Source: an uncultured Candidatus Saccharibacteria bacterium (GTDB taxonomy: Bacteria > Patescibacteriota > CPR2 > UBA1875 > CAIMLA01). From it: a stretch of 64,000 nt of DNA. A program made the position numbers and the translations under genes. A model generated the notes under the pieces. It did no database searches. It was not told the DNA's origin and saw only the letters and a program-made list of their open reading frames with translations. Positions 25,657-38,354 of this stretch are shown piece after piece. Where the stretch lies: the NCBI GenBank assembly GCA_964501135.1, contig CAZCRI010000002.1, positions 29,644-93,643 of the forward strand. Direction: 5' to 3'. Each line of letters opens with the position of its first letter. The first letter of the stretch is position 1.

Positions 25657-25855
25657 TTTCTCTCCCTCTCCCTTCTGCCATTTTGACCGAAGCGGAGAAA
25701 TCTTTTTAGTGCCTAGGCACCCTTGTCGACCCAATAAAAAATCTTCGATTTCTCGAAGACACATTGGAATAAAATTCATAAAGATTATGCGTTTTACTCC
25801 CTCGGTAGCGGATTAAGCCCTGTGGGCAGCTACTGTCTCCGGAAATTACCTACGT

Positions 25856-25884
25856 ATTTTAGCAAAATATAGCTGTAAGGTCAA
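25856..25884 (-). promoter_or_regulatory. sigma70-like promoter of rplJ-rplL with ~190-nt structured leader
   Basis: minus strand TTGACC (25884-25879), 17 nt spacer, TAAAAT (25861-25856); leader contains hairpins (TCTTCGA/TCGAAGA, GTGCCTAGGCAC palindrome), candidate L10 autoregulatory leader. Confidence 0.5.
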
Positions 25885-29253: not shown

Positions 29254-29439
29254 TCGTATATTATCCCTGTTTAGACCCCTTAAAACTAGTGGACAAGTTT
29301 CGGCTTCAATCTATAAAAATAGACTGTTCAATACTTAAATTTTCAAGTATAATGCACGTGTTTTGCAGCTTTGGTAGAAAGAACATGGCGACGGCAATTT
29401 GGCAGATAACTCTGCCAAAAGAGATGAAAGGAGTCCGCT

Positions 29440-29586
29440 ATGTGCGGAGAGCTTGCGGCAGGATTCTCGGGCGACATCAGCTGGGTTGGGAGGTGCCAAC
29501 CGGCTCCGGAACTCGACGAGGACGTCCCGAAGGAGACTACGGAGTCTGACACAGAGGATAGCGCAATCGCCACAGAGGGTACCTAG
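29440..29586 (+). CDS. candidate small acidic protein (48 aa) with strong SD
   Basis: GAAAGGAG 6 nt upstream of ATG; upstream TATAAT at 29348-29353; hairpin AGGACG/CGTCCT directly after stop; overlapping alternative frames exist in this GC-rich stretch. Confidence 0.3.
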   Translation: MCGELAAGFSGDISWVGRCQPAPELDEDVPKETTESDTEDSAIATEGT

Positions 29587-29720
29587 GACGGCGCCACGTC
29601 GTCCTAAGCCACCTCTCAGCACCGACGCCTACCCTACTACCATCTACCGTCACCTTGGTGACAATCTGCACAAACTAGGCCGGATCCCTACCATTGGGGC
29701 CCGGCCTTGTGCCTTTTTAC

Positions 29721-30314
29721 CTATTTAGCACCGTAAACCACAAAACCTTGGTGGCGGAGATCTTCTGCCAACTTCTTTTCTGCAATCTGAGCTTCTTCTT
29801 TTGTTTTGAATGCCTTGTAACCCGAATATAGATCTGGTCGCAAAATAGGATTCTCTGCCTTGCGAATCTTTACCGAAGAATTATAGCCCGCAATATGCTG
29901 TACTAGACGGACTTCCGGATCATAAATCGACTGCCCTACATAAACTTTCTTCGGGTTATTATCGAGTTCCACGACATAGATTTGCCAGAAATCTTTCTGC
30001 AGATGAGCACCAGCAATAACTTGGTAATTCTTTTCAGTGAGAACCTCAACCTGCTCTAATACCAGCGCTTTGGCTGCTTCCTCTGTTATGACTGGCATTA
30101 TCTTTGCTGATTTCTCAATCAACATTACTGGTTTCTTGCCGTGTCGGACACTGCGAATAAATTTCTCGAAGCATTTCTGGATATGTTCCTGACTATACTG
30201 AATGAACAGTTTGCGAGAACCTTTGCTTATTTCAAAAATATATACCTGATAGGGAATATTGTCTGGTTTGATTTCTGATATGTTTTTGTTTTCCATGAGG
30301 GCATTGTATCTCAT
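29721..30314 (-). CDS. protein with C-terminal GIY-YIG nuclease-like domain and unknown N-terminal domain
   Basis: QIYVVEL (GIY), 10 aa, KVYVGQS (YIG), PEVRLVQH (R..H), downstream N and E; 197 aa. Confidence 0.55.
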   Translation of the reverse strand: MRYNALMENKNISEIKPDNIPYQVYIFEISKGSRKLFIQYSQEHIQKCFEKFIRSVRHGKKPVMLIEKSAKIMPVITEEAAKALVLEQVEVLTEKNYQVIAGAHLQKDFWQIYVVELDNNPKKVYVGQSIYDPEVRLVQHIAGYNSSVKIRKAENPILRPDLYSGYKAFKTKEEAQIAEKKLAEDLRHQGFVVYGAK

Positions 30315-30964: not shown

Positions 30965-31291
30965 CTAGGAGACCAGGGCGGCAGCGATGAAGGCGAGCAA
31001 CTCGCTCGGCTTGGACGTGTGTACGTGGACTTCCTGAAGGCCACTCGGCCGACGGTCGATAACCTTCACTCCCAGGACGGGAGCGTCCTTGCCCGGCGTG
31101 CAACCGCGAAGTTCAGTGGCCCTGCGAAATGGCCTTGCCGGACGCATCGGCTTCTCGGTAGGCTTGGCACTCTTGTGCGTAATGCGCGCGTCCGGGTCAG
31201 GGCAATCCTCGTGTGCAAGGATTGCTGTCACGTCGCCGAGAAGTGGAAAGACCTTCTCGCTGTGCTTCTCGCGCTGAGATTGTGTCGACAT
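30965..31291 (-). CDS. hypothetical protein (108 aa), GC-rich
   Basis: GGGGAG SD 5 nt upstream of ATG; TTGCAT-18-TATAAT promoter at 31416-31387 on minus strand. Confidence 0.45.
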   Translation of the reverse strand: MSTQSQREKHSEKVFPLLGDVTAILAHEDCPDPDARITHKSAKPTEKPMRPARPFRRATELRGCTPGKDAPVLGVKVIDRRPSGLQEVHVHTSKPSELLAFIAAALVS

Positions 31292-31421: not shown

Positions 31422-32426
31422 TTAGATATCCCAGGCGAAGCTATTCCCAAAGTGACCCTTGGAGGCAGTTTGTCGATAGACTGGATCTTTAAGTCCCAAG
31501 AAGTCGATAATTCCTTTTGGAGAGAGGTCATACTCTTTATTCTCTAGCAAGTTCAATTCCTGCTCACCATCGATTATTGCGATAGCCATCACGGGCTGTA
31601 TCACACCGATGCTATAGGCAAGCTTCACCAGCACTTCGTTACAGTCGAGCTTTCTAAGATAATCAACGGCAATTCGACGCGCCATGTAGGCAGCGCTACG
31701 ATCAACCTTGGTGGCATCCTTACCGCTATAGCAACCTCCACCGATCGGTATCTGCGGTCCGTAATTATCTACAGCTAGCTTACGACCAGTTAGTCCAGTG
31801 TCCGCAGTAAAACCACCTATAGAGAAATCCCCTGTTGGATTAATGTGAATGTGTTTTGGTTTTAGAGTTTCTGCCAACTCGCGAAGGGGAGCAAAATCTG
31901 CCCCCGGTTGGTGTTGTGCGCTTATAACAACCGTATCGACACTGCCATCTTCGGCCAAGGTAACTTGGCTTTTGGCGTCAGGGCCAAAACCTGCTGGCAA
32001 GGCATGAATTAGCTTTCGCGAGAGGTAAAGTTCTTGTGGTATCATCGCTTCGTTTTCGTTACAAGCATATCCAATCATAATTCCCTGGTCGCCTGCCCCA
32101 CCAACATCAACGCCTTGGGCGATTTCTGGACTTTGATGCACTACATTCGTAAACACCTGTAGAGTATCTTCATAGCCAATTTCCGTATAAACATTTTGTA
32201 CAATTAAGCTTAAATCAAAGTGCGCCTTCGAAGTCACTTCACCGGTTATATATACCTGCCCATGTCCTCCCATAACTTCAACAGCGACTCTACTAAGAGG
32301 GTCCTGCTCTAAATATCTATCCAAGATAGCGTCCGATATTTGGTCACAAACCTTATCCGGGTGCCCCATACTGACGCACTCTGCGGTTCTCATTCCTTTA
32401 CTTCTAAAGTATTCATTATTATCCAT
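31422..32426 (-). CDS. metK: S-adenosylmethionine synthetase
   Basis: GHPDKVCDQISDAILD N-terminus and MetK central/C-terminal domains; 334 aa (short form). Confidence 0.85.
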   Translation of the reverse strand: MDNNEYFRSKGMRTAECVSMGHPDKVCDQISDAILDRYLEQDPLSRVAVEVMGGHGQVYITGEVTSKAHFDLSLIVQNVYTEIGYEDTLQVFTNVVHQSPEIAQGVDVGGAGDQGIMIGYACNENEAMIPQELYLSRKLIHALPAGFGPDAKSQVTLAEDGSVDTVVISAQHQPGADFAPLRELAETLKPKHIHINPTGDFSIGGFTADTGLTGRKLAVDNYGPQIPIGGGCYSGKDATKVDRSAAYMARRIAVDYLRKLDCNEVLVKLAYSIGVIQPVMAIAIIDGEQELNLLENKEYDLSPKGIIDFLGLKDPVYRQTASKGHFGNSFAWDI

Positions 32427-32440
32427 TATGTTTCCTTTCT

Positions 32441-32597
32441 TTAATAATCAAAATATCTCTTTCCACTGAAAGAGATAAGGTCGACCTTTCCTATTAGGAC
32501 TTATCGCTCCACTCACGTGGCTAGCATTAGCACCCTACTTGTCTTGGGGTTGCCGGCAGGTCATTGGGCTAGTTCCCTATCTGCGCTCTCGATATAT
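32441..32597 (-). promoter_or_regulatory. SAM-I (S-box) riboswitch with terminator/antiterminator expression platform in the metK leader
   Basis: Minus strand reads AUAUCGAGAG-CGCAGAUAGGGAACUAGCCCAAUGACCUGCCGGCAACC-...-GGGUGCUAAUGC-UAGCCACGUGAGUGG-AGCGAUAAG, matching SAM-I core elements (UAUCGAGAG, AGGGA..GCCC.AUGA, CCGGCAACC, GGUGCUAAU, P1 GAUAAG); downstream CUUAUC antiterminator partner overlaps terminator ATCTCTTTC/GAAAGAGAT (32455-32476) + U-tract, 15 nt before the metK ATG. Confidence 0.7.
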
Positions 32598-32629
32598 TTG
32601 ATTGTACTAAAATTATATAGGCTAACCCC

Positions 32630-32667
32630 GGATAAATCAAATAATCCCCACCAAATCGGTGGGGATT
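32630..32667 (-). terminator. intrinsic terminator downstream of the DEAD-box helicase gene
   Basis: AATCCCCACC/GGTGGGGATT 10-bp stem then ATTATTTGATTTAT on minus strand. Confidence 0.6.
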
Positions 32668-32674
32668 ATAATTT

Positions 32675-34679: not shown

Positions 34680-35900
34680 TTATTTTATTCCTGGCACCGG
34701 TTTATCAACAACCAACTTTGCCACCTCGGCTCTAACCTCTTCGTAAATCGCTTCATTTTCCACATTTCGTAGCGTCTTTACTAGTAGCTCGGCTACCTTA
34801 GTCGCATCTTCCTCTTTGAAGCCTCTGGTAGTAATTGCAGCCGTTCCAACTCGTATTCCAGAGGTAACAAAAGGACTCTCTGGATCGTTTGGAATTGCGT
34901 TTTTGTTAACGGTAATGTGAACCCTATCTAGTTCCTTCTCTGCTACCTTACCTGTAACTCCTAAGCTACGCAAATCTAGGAGCAATAGGTGGTTATCTGA
35001 ACCTCCCGAGACCATATTTACGCCCTCTGCTTCAAAAACGCGCTGCATGGCTTGTACGTTGGCCACAACCTGTTTTGTGTACTGTTTAAACTCAGGTTTT
35101 AGTGCCTCACCGAAGCAAACCGCCTTTGCTGCAATGATGTGTTCTAGAGGGCCACCTTGCATGCCAGGGAACACCGCCTTATCAACCGCTTTAGCGTATT
35201 TTTCTTTACAAAGAATGACTCCCCCACGTGGACCGCGCAAAGTCTTGTGGGTAGTTGTAGTCACAATGTCAGCATATGGGATTGGTGAAGGATGAATACC
35301 AGTAGCAACTAATCCGGCAATATGAGCCATATCCACCATCAGCATTGCTCCGACTTTGTCGGCAATCTCCCGAAAGCGTTTAAAATCAATCTCACGAGGG
35401 TAAGCGCTAGCTCCCGCTACAATCAGCCTTGGCTTATGCTCAAGAGCAAGTTTCTCAATATTGTCATAGTCAAGATAACCTTCTGGTGTGAGTCCATAAG
35501 AAACAAAGTTATAAAACTTTCCCGAAAAGTTGACCGCGCTGCCGTGCGTCAAGTGTCCACCCTGATCAAGGGATTGACCCATGACGGTATCCCCAAGCTC
35601 AATAATAGCAAAATAGGCCGCAATATTTGCGCTAGCACCACTATGAGGTTGGACATTGGCATGGTCGGCACCAAAAAGTTTTTTTACCCTTTCTCGTGCA
35701 AGGTCTTCTACCCTGTCGATGTATTCACAACCGCCGTAATAGCGATGTGAGGGTGTTCCTTCGGCGTATTTATTGGTAAGAATCGATCCCGCAGCGGCCA
35801 AAACGTCCTCCGAGACGTAATTTTCGCTTGCAATCAACTCAATCCCGTTTTTCTGTCTCCCTTTTTCTAGTTCTATGATGTCAAAAATTTCTGTATCCAT
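34680..35900 (-). CDS. glyA: serine hydroxymethyltransferase
   Basis: 406 aa; PLP-lysine motif [14 protein letters not shown]. Confidence 0.9.
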
Positions 35901-35981
35901 GTTATTTACCTCACTTTATATCAAATAATCTAAGTAACTCGAGAGAACTAGTCTAATAAAAAATATTTGTGTTTCCAATAA

Positions 35982-36806
35982 TCATAGTTCGCTCGCTTTC
36001 AGCACATTCGAGAGAAGCATTGAAACTGTCATCGGTCCTACCCCACCCGGACTTGGAGTAATAAAGGCCGCCTTCTGCGCTACATTTTTATAGTCTACAT
36101 CACCGACAATCTTACCCTGATAGAGAGAGGTGCCAATATCAATAACTACAGCGCCCTCCTTAATCATATCAGCTTTCACTAGGTTTCTCTTACCAACAGC
36201 CGAGATTACGATGTCAGACTCTACGGTAATCTCCTTGAGGTTTTTGGTAAGGCTATTTGCGCTAAGTACCGTGGCCTCCTCGTTAAGAAGCATTTGGGCC
36301 AATGGGCGCCCCACCAAGTTACTTTGTCCGATTACAGACACCCTCTTACCCGCTATATCTATCCGATAATAACGAAGAAGGTTAATTACTCCTTCTGGTG
36401 TAGCGGGGTATAACCCTGGGAGCCCCTTAATAAGTCTACCCAGGTTTATAGAAGAGAGACCATCAACATCCTTGTTTGGTGCAATCGCCTCCAGTAGCTC
36501 ATTTGGGACGTATTCGCCTGGCAGAGGTAACTGAATTAAAATGCCAGTTGTCTTTTTGTCCTTGTTCAGTTTAGAAATAAGTTTTAGGACATCTGTTTGT
36601 TTTCCGTTAGCATCAAAACGCCAGAGAGTCATAGTAATTCCGACTCGCTCACAGGCCTGCTTCTTCAATTGAACGTATTTCTCACTTGCTGGATCGTCGC
36701 CAATTAGAATTACTGCCAAAGAATACTTGCGCTTCGCTGACACAATCGCATCTTTGACGCCTTCTTCAATTGCTTTAGCTAGCTCACGGCCAGACATCTC
36801 TACCAT
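35982..36806 (-). CDS. folD: methylenetetrahydrofolate dehydrogenase/cyclohydrolase
   Basis: 274 aa; FolD catalytic and Rossmann domains. Confidence 0.85.
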   Translation of the reverse strand: MVEMSGRELAKAIEEGVKDAIVSAKRKYSLAVILIGDDPASEKYVQLKKQACERVGITMTLWRFDANGKQTDVLKLISKLNKDKKTTGILIQLPLPGEYVPNELLEAIAPNKDVDGLSSINLGRLIKGLPGLYPATPEGVINLLRYYRIDIAGKRVSVIGQSNLVGRPLAQMLLNEEATVLSANSLTKNLKEITVESDIVISAVGKRNLVKADMIKEGAVVIDIGTSLYQGKIVGDVDYKNVAQKAAFITPSPGGVGPMTVSMLLSNVLKASEL

Positions 36807-37297
36807 TAACGCTCCAAAACTACATAACTAATTTTATACCCACCAGACTCAGAAGCAACTGCTTCGATTGAATGAAATTCATTTTCATATTCTGGAAAGA
36901 AAGTATCGGCGTCAGTGACCTCGGCATCTACAACTGTAAGATATAGTCTATCGGCATCCTTGATCGCCTGCGAGTAAACATAGCCACCACCGATTACAAA
37001 TATTTCTTCCTGGTCGGACTGAGAAGCGATGTCGTATGCTTCTTCTAGGCTGTGAGCTACCGCCGCGCCCTCGATTTTGATATCATCTGGAGTAAGTATG
37101 ATATTGAGCCTACCAGGTAACAAGAAGGGTAATGACTGATAAGTCTTGTACCCCATTATCACGGGGTGACCGTGGGTAATCTTTTTAAAGTGCGCCAGAT
37201 CCTCGGGCAACTCAAAAAGCAGCTGGTTGTTCCTGCCAATCGCTCTATTACCCGCAGCTACCGCCGCAATAATGCTAATTATTGGTTTTCTCGTCAT
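36806..37297 (-). CDS. folA: dihydrofolate reductase
   Basis: ISIIAAVAAGNRAIG... DHFR core (~163 aa); start placed at MTRKP, overlapping the thyA 3' end by ~23 nt. Confidence 0.75.
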   Translation of the reverse strand: MTRKPIISIIAAVAAGNRAIGRNNQLLFELPEDLAHFKKITHGHPVIMGYKTYQSLPFLLPGRLNIILTPDDIKIEGAAVAHSLEEAYDIASQSDQEEIFVIGGGYVYSQAIKDADRLYLTVVDAEVTDADTFFPEYENEFHSIEAVASESGGYKISYVVLER

Positions 37298-38354
37298 CTT
37301 TTTCTTTCGGATCAGGGCAAACATCTGGTTTCTTCTCTTCGAAGCCCCCAATATTTGCTATTTCTGCCTTTATTGAAGGGTGTGATTCGTAACCGATTAG
37401 TTCTATATCTTCAAATTTAAAGTCGTCAATATTCTTGATTTCTGGGTTCAGTCTTACCGTAGGGAAAGCATAAGGTTCACGTGATAGTTGCTCGTGGACG
37501 GCATCAAAATGATTGCTATAGATGTGAACATCGCCAAAGGAGTGAACAAACTCCCCAGGCTCCAAGCCTGTCACCTGAGCCACCATCAATAACAGCAATG
37601 CATAACTTGCGATGTTAAAAGGTACCCCAAGAAATGAATCTGCACTTCGCTGGTATAAGCCAAGATTTAATTTGTTTCCTTCTGTGACCGCAAACTGAAA
37701 AGTAGTATGACAAAATGGTGGAACCTGACTCTTGTTCTTCTCTGAAGCCATAGCATAGATAAAATCTGGGTTCCAGGCAGAAACAACGTAGGATTTCCTA
37801 AAGGGCTTATCTTTTAGGCCCTGAATAACCCAACCAAGCTGATCTATTTCTCTACCGTCAGAGGCAGGCCATCGCCTCCACATACGACCATATATCGTAA
37901 CCAAATCGCCCCACTTTACGACAAACGGATCATCAGCTGGTAATGACTTTAGCTTAGAGATAAAATCTTTCTGTTCCATATCTGCCGATGGGTCGTTTTT
38001 TACGCAGTGCATATGGTAATGCTTCCAGGCCCACTCATCCCAAATATGGACGTCATGGTCAACTAGATATTTGATATTTGAAGAACCAGATAGGAACCAG
38101 AGTAATTCCTCAATGATTCCGCGCATGAAAACTTTTTTTGTTGTCAGGACAGGCAAGCCCTTACTTAGGTCAAAACGTATCTGACGCCCAAAAACCGAAC
38201 GAATAAAGGGTGGTTTTTCTCCTTTCGAAGCATACTGGTCACGAACTTCCTGATTAAAGAAAACTTCTTTGTCCGAACCGTTATCTAGGATGTCTTGCAA
38301 AAGATCCAGGTATTGATATTCAGGGTGTCGTTTTTCTGCCATTATTCGCTCCAA
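37275..38354 (-). CDS. thyA: thymidylate synthase (ThyA, long form with C-terminal acidic tail)
   Basis: ThyA fold with catalytic Cys region; 359 aa. Confidence 0.8.
   Translation of the reverse strand: MERIMAEKRHPEYQYLDLLQDILDNGSDKEVFFNQEVRDQYASKGEKPPFIRSVFGRQIRFDLSKGLPVLTTKKVFMRGIIEELLWFLSGSSNIKYLVDHDVHIWDEWAWKHYHMHCVKNDPSADMEQKDFISKLKSLPADDPFVVKWGDLVTIYGRMWRRWPASDGREIDQLGWVIQGLKDKPFRKSYVVSAWNPDFIYAMASEKNKSQVPPFCHTTFQFAVTEGNKLNLGLYQRSADSFLGVPFNIASYALLLLMVAQVTGLEPGEFVHSFGDVHIYSNHFDAVHEQLSREPYAFPTVRLNPEIKNIDDFKFEDIELIGYESHPSIKAEIANIGGFEEKKPDVCPDPKEKDDEKTNN

Follow-up and report, generated by a model that had tools for sequence, protein, structure and literature searches.

A probable SAM-I riboswitch in front of metK in a Patescibacteria genome, with a predicted transcription-termination platform

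The 64-kb window analysed here (the whole stretch of DNA under study, 64,000 nucleotides of contig CAZCRI010000002.1 from an uncultured Candidatus Saccharibacteria bacterium) carries on its minus strand metK, the gene for S-adenosylmethionine (SAM) synthetase. This gene is preceded by a leader in which a very probable SAM-I (S-box) aptamer, a terminator-like hairpin with a U-tract and a separate Shine-Dalgarno sequence follow one another (Table 1). An original prediction, made from the sequence, had placed a SAM-I riboswitch with a transcription-attenuation platform in front of metK. The identity of the target gene was borne out by the presence of all three Pfam domains of MetK (PF00438, PF02772, PF02773) and by a score of 305.9 bits against TIGR01034, which is marginally under the equivalog cutoff of 309.4. 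MetK homologues numbered in the thousands, and named homologues at 59-64% identity belonged to Ca. Berkelbacteria and Ca. Saccharibacteria. The closest genomic relative was the 'Patescibacteria group bacterium' metagenome-assembled genome (MAG) JTS-AC303 (locus L001), whose MetK was 90% identical and whose locus showed ~80% DNA identity over 2.1 kb, including the DEAD-box helicase gene upstream. This relationship agrees with the earlier description of the host genome as reduced, but not with its description as low in GC, since the GC content of the window (43-48%) and of the genome (about 44%) is moderate.

Table 1. Positions of the metK gene and of the elements of its leader in the window, in the order of transcription
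Feature	Window position	Strand	Basis
Sigma-70-like promoter: TTGATT (32640-32635), 17-nt spacer, TATAAT (32617-32612)	32612..32640	-	consensus scan, 10/12 matches
Very probable SAM-I (S-box) aptamer, four-way junction P1-P4	32498..32598	-	RF00162 match and covariation in 23 related leaders
P1 5' strand AAUAUAUC, core UAUC pairing with GAUA	32591..32598	-	Rfam alignment
UAUCGAGAG motif	32594-32586	-	read in sequence
J1/2, GAGA	between P1 and P2	-	read in sequence
P2, GCGCAG-AUA-GGG-AACUAG-CCC-AAUGAC-CUGCC, with K-turn-like internal loop and terminal loop AACUAG	32555..32586	-	Rfam alignment and sequence
P2 K-turn-like loop, 5' strand AUA and 3' strand AAUGAC	32580-32578 and 32565-32560	-	
Pseudoknot 5' half CUAG, in the P2 loop, pairing with CUAG 32524-32521	32569..32572	-	
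P3, GGCAACCC...GGGUGCU (GGCA-A-CCC ... GGG-UGCU), 7 bp, 11-nt loop	32529..32554	-	Rfam alignment and sequence
J3/4, AAU	between P3 and P4	-	read in sequence
P4, G-CUAG-CCACGUGAGUGG-AGC: outer G-C pair and hairpin CCAC-GUGA-GUGG	32506..32525	-	Rfam alignment
Pseudoknot 3' half CUAG, in J3/4-P4, pairing with the P2-loop CUAG	32521..32524	-	
P1 3' strand GAUAAGUC, switching strand common to P1 and the predicted antiterminator; GAUAAG 32505-32500	32498..32505	-	Rfam alignment
Small spacer hairpin UCC-UAAUA-GGA	32489..32499	-	predicted in folds; compensatory changes in relatives
Conserved AAAGGUCGA element, between spacer hairpin and antiterminator 3' strand	32481..32489	-	sequence conservation
Predicted antiterminator 3' strand CUUAUCUCUUU, pairing with GGAGCGAUAAG (32510-32500); CUUAUC = 32479-32474	32469..32479	-	read in sequence
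Predicted intrinsic terminator hairpin UAUCUCUUUC-AGUG-GAAAGAGAUA, 10 bp, 3 G-C, about -11 kcal/mol	32454..32477	-	pattern scan, folding, relatives
U-tract UUUUGAUUAUU	32443..32453	-	pattern scan and sequence
Shine-Dalgarno AAGGA, 6 nt before ATG, outside the terminator	32433..32437	-	read in sequence
metK, encoding S-adenosylmethionine synthetase of 334 aa, in the short form that is typical of Patescibacteria; ATG at 32426	31422..32426	-	TIGR01034 and Pfam

An Rfam scan of both strands of the 64-kb window against 4227 families returned three matches above gathering thresholds. One of these was RF00162 (SAM-I) at 32598..32498 on the minus strand, with 49.7 bits against a gathering score of 44.4 (E = 2.1e-8). 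The match covered the model in full (positions 1-108 of 108), and the aptamer ended 71 nt before the ATG of metK, on the same strand. No second element of the SAM clan was found in the window, even in a permissive scan at E <= 0.5. When the sequence from 32600 to 32424 was re-read, all motifs that the original prediction had listed were located on the minus strand at the place given, among them CCGGCAACC, which opens P3, GGGUGCUAAUGC and the P4 hairpin CCACGUGAGUGG at 32520-32509. Helices P1 to P4 could all be drawn in the window sequence, and P3 held the conserved ligand-contact segments GGCAACC and GGUGC. Two checks had been named beforehand, a cmsearch with RF00162 and the complementarity between the P2 loop and J3/4; the first gave the above-threshold score just cited and the second four Watson-Crick pairs out of four, so that neither contradicted the assignment. 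The SAM-contact positions of the solved T. tengcongensis structure, which we take to be A6, U7, G11, C44, A45, U57, G58, A87 and U88, were all matched in the Rfam alignment of the window, and the aptamer would be expected to bind SAM.

For comparison, metK loci were gathered by genome scan, metagenome scan and exact look-up of homologous proteins. The metagenome scan with the MetK alignment relied on very general peptide patterns and recovered mostly distant MetKs; closer ones were fetched singly. Each of the nine close relatives (MetK 70-78% identical) showed an RF00162 match at the same position, six of them above the gathering score and three below it. The JTS-AC303 locus, L001, also carried a SAM-I match at the same place, with a score of 29.5 bits that is explained by a 57-nt stretch in P2. 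Matches above the gathering score were further obtained for half of the more distant metagenome loci (10 of 20), and matches at E <= 0.05 for 9 of 14 loci in a further set, among them the complete Ca. Berkelbacteria genome CP011213 (L097), with 49.4 bits. By these matches, SAM-I leaders of metK are common across Patescibacteria. The element is thus not unusual for the phylum, many of whose metK genes have a SAM-I leader, and the view that it is noteworthy in such a genome was not upheld.

The SAM-I structure, including the pseudoknot, was mapped from the window onto an alignment of 23 related metK aptamers. Standard pairs occupied 89.7% of the cells, as compared to 29-43% when the 3' partners were slid by 1-3 columns. 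Double-sided, compensatory changes were present at 20 of 32 pairs, and none of 500 shuffles reached the observed covariation. The pseudoknot was 96.7% paired, with all four pairs covarying (variants CUAG/CUAG, CUGG/CCAG, UUGG/CCAA and CUGA/UCAG). The inner pairs of P1 (U-A, A-U, U-A) were invariant, while the fourth was C-G in 21 and U-G in 2 of the 23 leaders. P2a was 93.8% paired with covariation at 5 of 5 pairs, P2b was 97.1% and P3 96.3% paired, and in P4 the compensatory change from CCAC/GUGG to CCGC/GCGG was seen in L084, L090 and L093. The E-value and the covariation together ruled out a chance or artefact origin of the match and sustained the earlier identification. The metK leader is, on this comparative sequence evidence, very probably a SAM-I (S-box) aptamer.

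Some of the related aptamers carried additional segments. In L001 (2794-2927) and L084 (801-928), ~29-34 extra nt were found in the K-turn 3' strand of P2 (alignment A2, columns 40-73). This segment forms a hairpin of its own, which covaries and differs in sequence between both loci, and it resembles a partial duplication of CGAUG...CCUG. Both aptamers scored ~30 bits, under the Rfam gathering score, and the window aptamer is without this insertion. In L086 (1333-1450), a 19-nt insertion extended P4 (CCGCCAGAGGUGG), and the SAM-I score of 40.9 bits was slightly under the gathering score.

Upstream of the aptamer, transcription likely starts a few nt before P1. A TATAAT-like -10 box lay at a constant distance from the conserved ACAATCAAATATATC in nine relatives, and the promoter of the window directly follows the helicase gene's own terminator, which a pattern scan placed at 32669..32641. 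Between the aptamer and the terminator-like hairpin, the small spacer hairpin occurred in compensatory forms in L090 (UGCCA/UGGCA) and L084 (GAGU/ACUC). The sequence of the adjoining AAAGGUCGA (32489-32481) was conserved in 9 of the 11 close relatives. A search for its pairing partner among the aligned relatives gave no consistent candidate; pairing of GACCU in the P2 3' strand with AGGUC was considered and rejected, as it was present in some relatives but, by reading of the alignment, not in L086.

The pattern scan identified a 10-bp terminator-like hairpin followed by UUUUGAUUAU; in relatives, the U-tract read UUUUUUGAUU. Hairpin and U-tract were kept in close relatives with compensatory changes, the hairpin strands being AUCUUUCC/GGAAAGAU in L084, AUCUCUUC/GAAGGGAU in L088 and L094, CUCUCUUGC/GCAAAAGAG in L090 and CUCGUUUGC/GCAAAGGAG in L093. 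Distant relatives also had a hairpin and U-tract, of unrelated sequence (L096, with GUUGCUCU/GGAGCAAC, and L003, L012, L026 and L032). This conservation upheld the terminator of the proposed Firmicutes-style terminator/antiterminator architecture. The details differed from those first given, in that 10 bp rather than 9 could be drawn and the gap between U-tract and ATG measured 16 nt instead of 15. The Shine-Dalgarno sequence was unpaired in the minimum-free-energy (MFE) fold of the full leader. Its location beyond the U-tract and its unpaired state indicate that the platform would act on transcription and not on ribosome access. Termination control of metK is regarded as probable, with the hairpin as the expected site of termination.

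The pairing of GAUAAG with CUUAUC that had been proposed as an antiterminator was present. However, its overlap with the terminator was not ~3 nt: as drawn here, the helix of GGAGCGAUAAG and CUUAUCUCUUU has 10 pairs over 11 positions, two of them terminal G.U pairs, and a single C.U mismatch. It takes in 9 of the 10 nucleotides that make up the 5' strand of the terminator. In a nascent RNA of 137 nt, which corresponds to the transcript before the terminator 3' strand is made, the antiterminator fold was calculated at -25.5 to -28.0 kcal/mol and the P1-closed fold at -28.1 kcal/mol. In this folding model, the two states are nearly degenerate, as expected of a switch. This classical pairing was kept in most relatives. 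Its duplex energy of -12.2 kcal/mol in L084, L088 and L094 compared with about -6 +/- 2 kcal/mol for shuffles, and the duplex of L001 was also clearly above shuffles. The exact helix drawn for the window follows the overall architecture and the precedent of the family, and should be read as a proposal.

The arrangement of these elements is consistent with the following sequence of events. Transcription would start from the promoter at ~32640-32612, and the first ~100 nt would fold as a four-helix aptamer. Binding of SAM would lock P1 (UAUC/GAUA and outer pairs) and the pseudoknot between the P2 loop and J3/4. With the P1 3' strand unavailable, the 10-bp hairpin (32477-32454) would form before UUUUGAUUAUU, and RNA polymerase would terminate upstream of metK. 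At low SAM, the 3' strand of P1, together with the adjoining J4/1 (AGCGAUAAG), would instead pair with CUUAUCUCU. The latter makes up most of the terminator 5' strand, so that its pairing would prevent terminator formation and allow read-through to the unobstructed Shine-Dalgarno AAGGA and translation of SAM synthetase. Computational support for this scheme comes from the identity of the aptamer, the covariation of its fold and the conservation of hairpin and U-tract. There is good reason to expect that the leader functions as a canonical SAM-I riboswitch that turns metK off by premature transcription termination.

Several observations weigh against this interpretation. The RF00162 score was just 5 bits over the gathering score. 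The outer half of P1 was mismatched (A.A and A.C), P3 was short (7 bp with an 11-nt loop), and the 5' strand of the K-turn (32578-32580, minus strand) read AUA, as opposed to the consensus GGA. The terminator was A/U-rich (three G-C pairs, about -11 kcal/mol) with an interrupted U-run. Shuffles that preserve composition did as well as the antiterminator duplex of the window (z = -0.1), and over 17 loci z averaged only -1.1; this test discriminates poorly, since a strand rich in purines can pair with one rich in pyrimidines in many registers. Finally, the ViennaRNA MFE fold of the nascent RNA was a different long-range structure of -37.5 kcal/mol.

The 3' strand of the K-turn, AAU-GA, was canonical. 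AUA in place of GGA leaves room for just one G.A pair, and A.U would stand at the second sheared position. The 5' strand read (A/G)UA throughout the window aptamer and its 10 close relatives and never GGA. Its U was invariant in 11 close relatives, and several distant aptamers of Patescibacteria had U or C there, so that the second sheared position would be taken by A.U or A.C. Its invariance in close relatives and presence in distant ones indicated a lineage trait rather than decay. K-turns with a non-G nucleotide at the 2n position exist. A speculative and improbable extension, suggested by this strand and by the hairpins inserted into the bulged K-turn strand of L001 and L084, is that the Patescibacteria SAM-I lineage of the window might fold P2 without a canonical K-turn and represent a structural sub-class of SAM-I. 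Bending of P2 and docking of the pseudoknot would then be achieved otherwise, for instance through a three-way junction where the insertion is present, and such a non-canonical P2 sub-class would be partly missed by current Rfam thresholds (scores of about 30 bits).

The long-range fold represents an alternative way of forming the ON state with the same SAM-I aptamer. In this non-classical antiterminator, CCUUAUCUCUUUC of the terminator 5' strand would pair with the 5' part of the aptamer, GAGAG...AGAUAGGG (J1/2 and the P2 5' strand), and the whole aptamer, not the P1 3' strand alone, would be unfolded. The 13-bp helix constitutes the MFE fold of the 137-141-nt nascent RNA (-37.5 versus -28 kcal/mol for the classical fold), and its duplex energy in the window was -12.9 kcal/mol, as compared to -8.7 for the classical duplex. 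However, the duplex energy of the long-range pairing equalled the shuffled mean in 10 of 10 close relatives, in most of which the classical pairing was stronger. Long-range antitermination would moreover require a folded P2 to melt during transcription, and its complementarity is partly a by-product of the resemblance of GAUAGG to GAUAAG. This alternative was therefore set aside as window-specific and not conserved, and is considered unlikely. The classical design, with the P1 3' strand as the switching strand, was preferred because the long-range pairing stayed at the shuffled mean in ten relatives and the classical one was stronger in L084, L088, L094 and L001.

A slightly smaller probability is assigned to translational or dual control, in which the SAM-bound fold would hide the ribosome-binding site and the hairpin would not be a working terminator. 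The A/U-rich composition of the window terminator fits such control, and UCUUUC, on the pyrimidine strand, might in principle base-pair with GAAAGG in the Shine-Dalgarno region of the window. Moreover, in the distant relatives L007, L009, L014 and L017, a hairpin 3' strand that contains AGGAG, and the U-run, abut the AUG and could affect translation too. In the window, however, the U-tract ends 5 nt before the Shine-Dalgarno sequence (32437-32433), which is outside every predicted helix, so that its sequestration was dismissed. A conserved U-tract follows the hairpin in all close relatives, and a pairing with the Shine-Dalgarno sequence, being more distant, would lose against the local terminator hairpin. 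Termination at the hairpin thus remains the preferred mode of control for the window. In the metK leaders of L007, L009, L014, L017 and L024, the 3' strand of the post-aptamer hairpin contains an AGGAG or AGGA Shine-Dalgarno and the U-run abuts the AUG. This arrangement suggests that termination and Shine-Dalgarno sequestration are combined there, unlike in the window with its separate Shine-Dalgarno.

That the element is a decayed or re-purposed look-alike, which lost SAM binding or binds a related compound such as S-adenosylhomocysteine (SAH), is highly improbable: a score barely over the gathering score, the non-consensus K-turn, the short P3 and the mismatched outer P1 would fit this idea, but the ligand-contact positions are all conserved, the 23 leaders show strong purifying and compensatory evolution that includes the pseudoknot, the element precedes a classical S-box target, and the U at the K-turn 2n position and the short P3 are also seen in many relatives with scores of 50-75 bits.

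The neighbourhood of metK contains further genes of one-carbon metabolism. On the same strand, folA (dihydrofolate reductase, DHFR), folD and glyA (serine hydroxymethyltransferase, SHMT) are consecutive at 34680-37351 and lie upstream of a cytidylate-kinase-like gene, the DEAD-box helicase gene and metK. Within this one-carbon/SAM neighbourhood, the riboswitch has its own promoter, after the helicase terminator. In L090 (2494-3978) and the P0041 contig, metK stands beside genes for S-adenosylhomocysteine hydrolase and a PfkB-family kinase, in a compact SAM-cycle cluster; this arrangement was not found beside metK of the window. This small genome has also kept a second cis-regulatory leader RNA, the ribosomal protein L10 leader (RF00557) at 25727-25860 on the minus strand, with 62.8 bits against a gathering score of 44.

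Directly downstream of metK, an open reading frame (ORF) of 108 aa (30965-31291, minus strand) with a GGGGAG ribosome-binding site has a GC content of ~62%, a composition unlike the rest of the 44% GC window, and gave no Pfam match. Its mismatches with L001 fall 6/7/32 by codon position, which identifies it as a real coding gene under purifying selection. A structured RNA had been considered for this GC-rich island; it had no Rfam match and proved to be the 108-aa coding gene. Two genes downstream of metK, a 197-aa ORF (29721-30314, minus strand) encodes a GIY-YIG nuclease domain (Pfam E = 1e-8). In L084 and L085, GIY-YIG ORFs of about 181-189 aa with a weak Pfam match directly follow metK; the ORF of L086 in a similar position, of 189 aa, gave no Pfam match. 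A second GC-rich island (~60% GC) at ~29400-29720, flanked by the GIY-YIG ORF and the gene of a RecD-like helicase, contained no ORF with a family match, had no Rfam match at E <= 1 and had no match in L001.

A search of full-text literature for SAM or other riboswitches in the candidate phyla radiation (CPR), Patescibacteria or Saccharibacteria yielded no description of the window element; this silence is a gap in commentary, not in kind. Knowledge of riboswitch mechanism is unchanged by the present finding, whose value is that a cis-regulator of an uncultivated, ultra-small, genome-reduced lineage of Patescibacteria is now correctly annotated. The leader sequence indicates that these cells may make their own SAM and sense its level autonomously by an RNA switch, without a protein regulator. 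A 2024 perspective proposes riboswitches for Patescibacteria genetic tools (PMC11665869), and a natural SAM-responsive OFF switch, which would already be suited to the promoters and terminators of Patescibacteria, could serve as a practical part in the tools now developed for these organisms.

Among known systems, SAM-IV (RF00634) and SAM-I/IV (RF01725) of clan CL00012 share with the window element the ligand-binding core around P1, P3 and J1/2. They are without the P4 and K-turn arrangement of SAM-I and have another pseudoknot. The element does not belong to either family: it has a P4 (CCAC-GUGA-GUGG) and a pseudoknot between the P2 loop and J3/4, and within the clan it matches RF00162 best, over the full length. 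Other Patescibacteria metK leaders, such as those of CP011213 (L097) and JTS-AC303 (L001), have the same gene, aptamer and terminator with U-tract, and the closest relatives L086 and L091 also share the helicase-metK synteny. Unlike the window, L001 and L084 have an extra P2 hairpin, L086 has the 19-nt P4 insertion, and some distant relatives have the hairpin against the AUG.

The closest counterpart is SAM-I/S-box itself (RF00162), as exemplified by the B. subtilis metK leader and the T. tengcongensis metF-H2 aptamer. The window element shares with these the four-way junction P1-P4, the P2-loop/J3-4 pseudoknot, the conserved core segments AGAG, GGCAACC, GGUGC and GAUA and, as in the B. subtilis leader, its location upstream of metK. 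A competition between P1 and the 5' strand of the terminator over the 3' strand of P1, with OFF on SAM, is likewise predicted here. In contrast to SAM-I of Bacillus and Thermoanaerobacter, the window element has a short P3 of 7 bp, mismatches in the outer part of P1, AUA instead of GGA in the K-turn 5' strand and an A/U-rich terminator, and, unlike the S-box Firmicutes, the host is a Patescibacteria (CPR) genome. The differences from classical SAM-I are all within the known variation of the family, and the element is a member of this known family, detectable by a standard Rfam scan and with an ordinary predicted mechanism.

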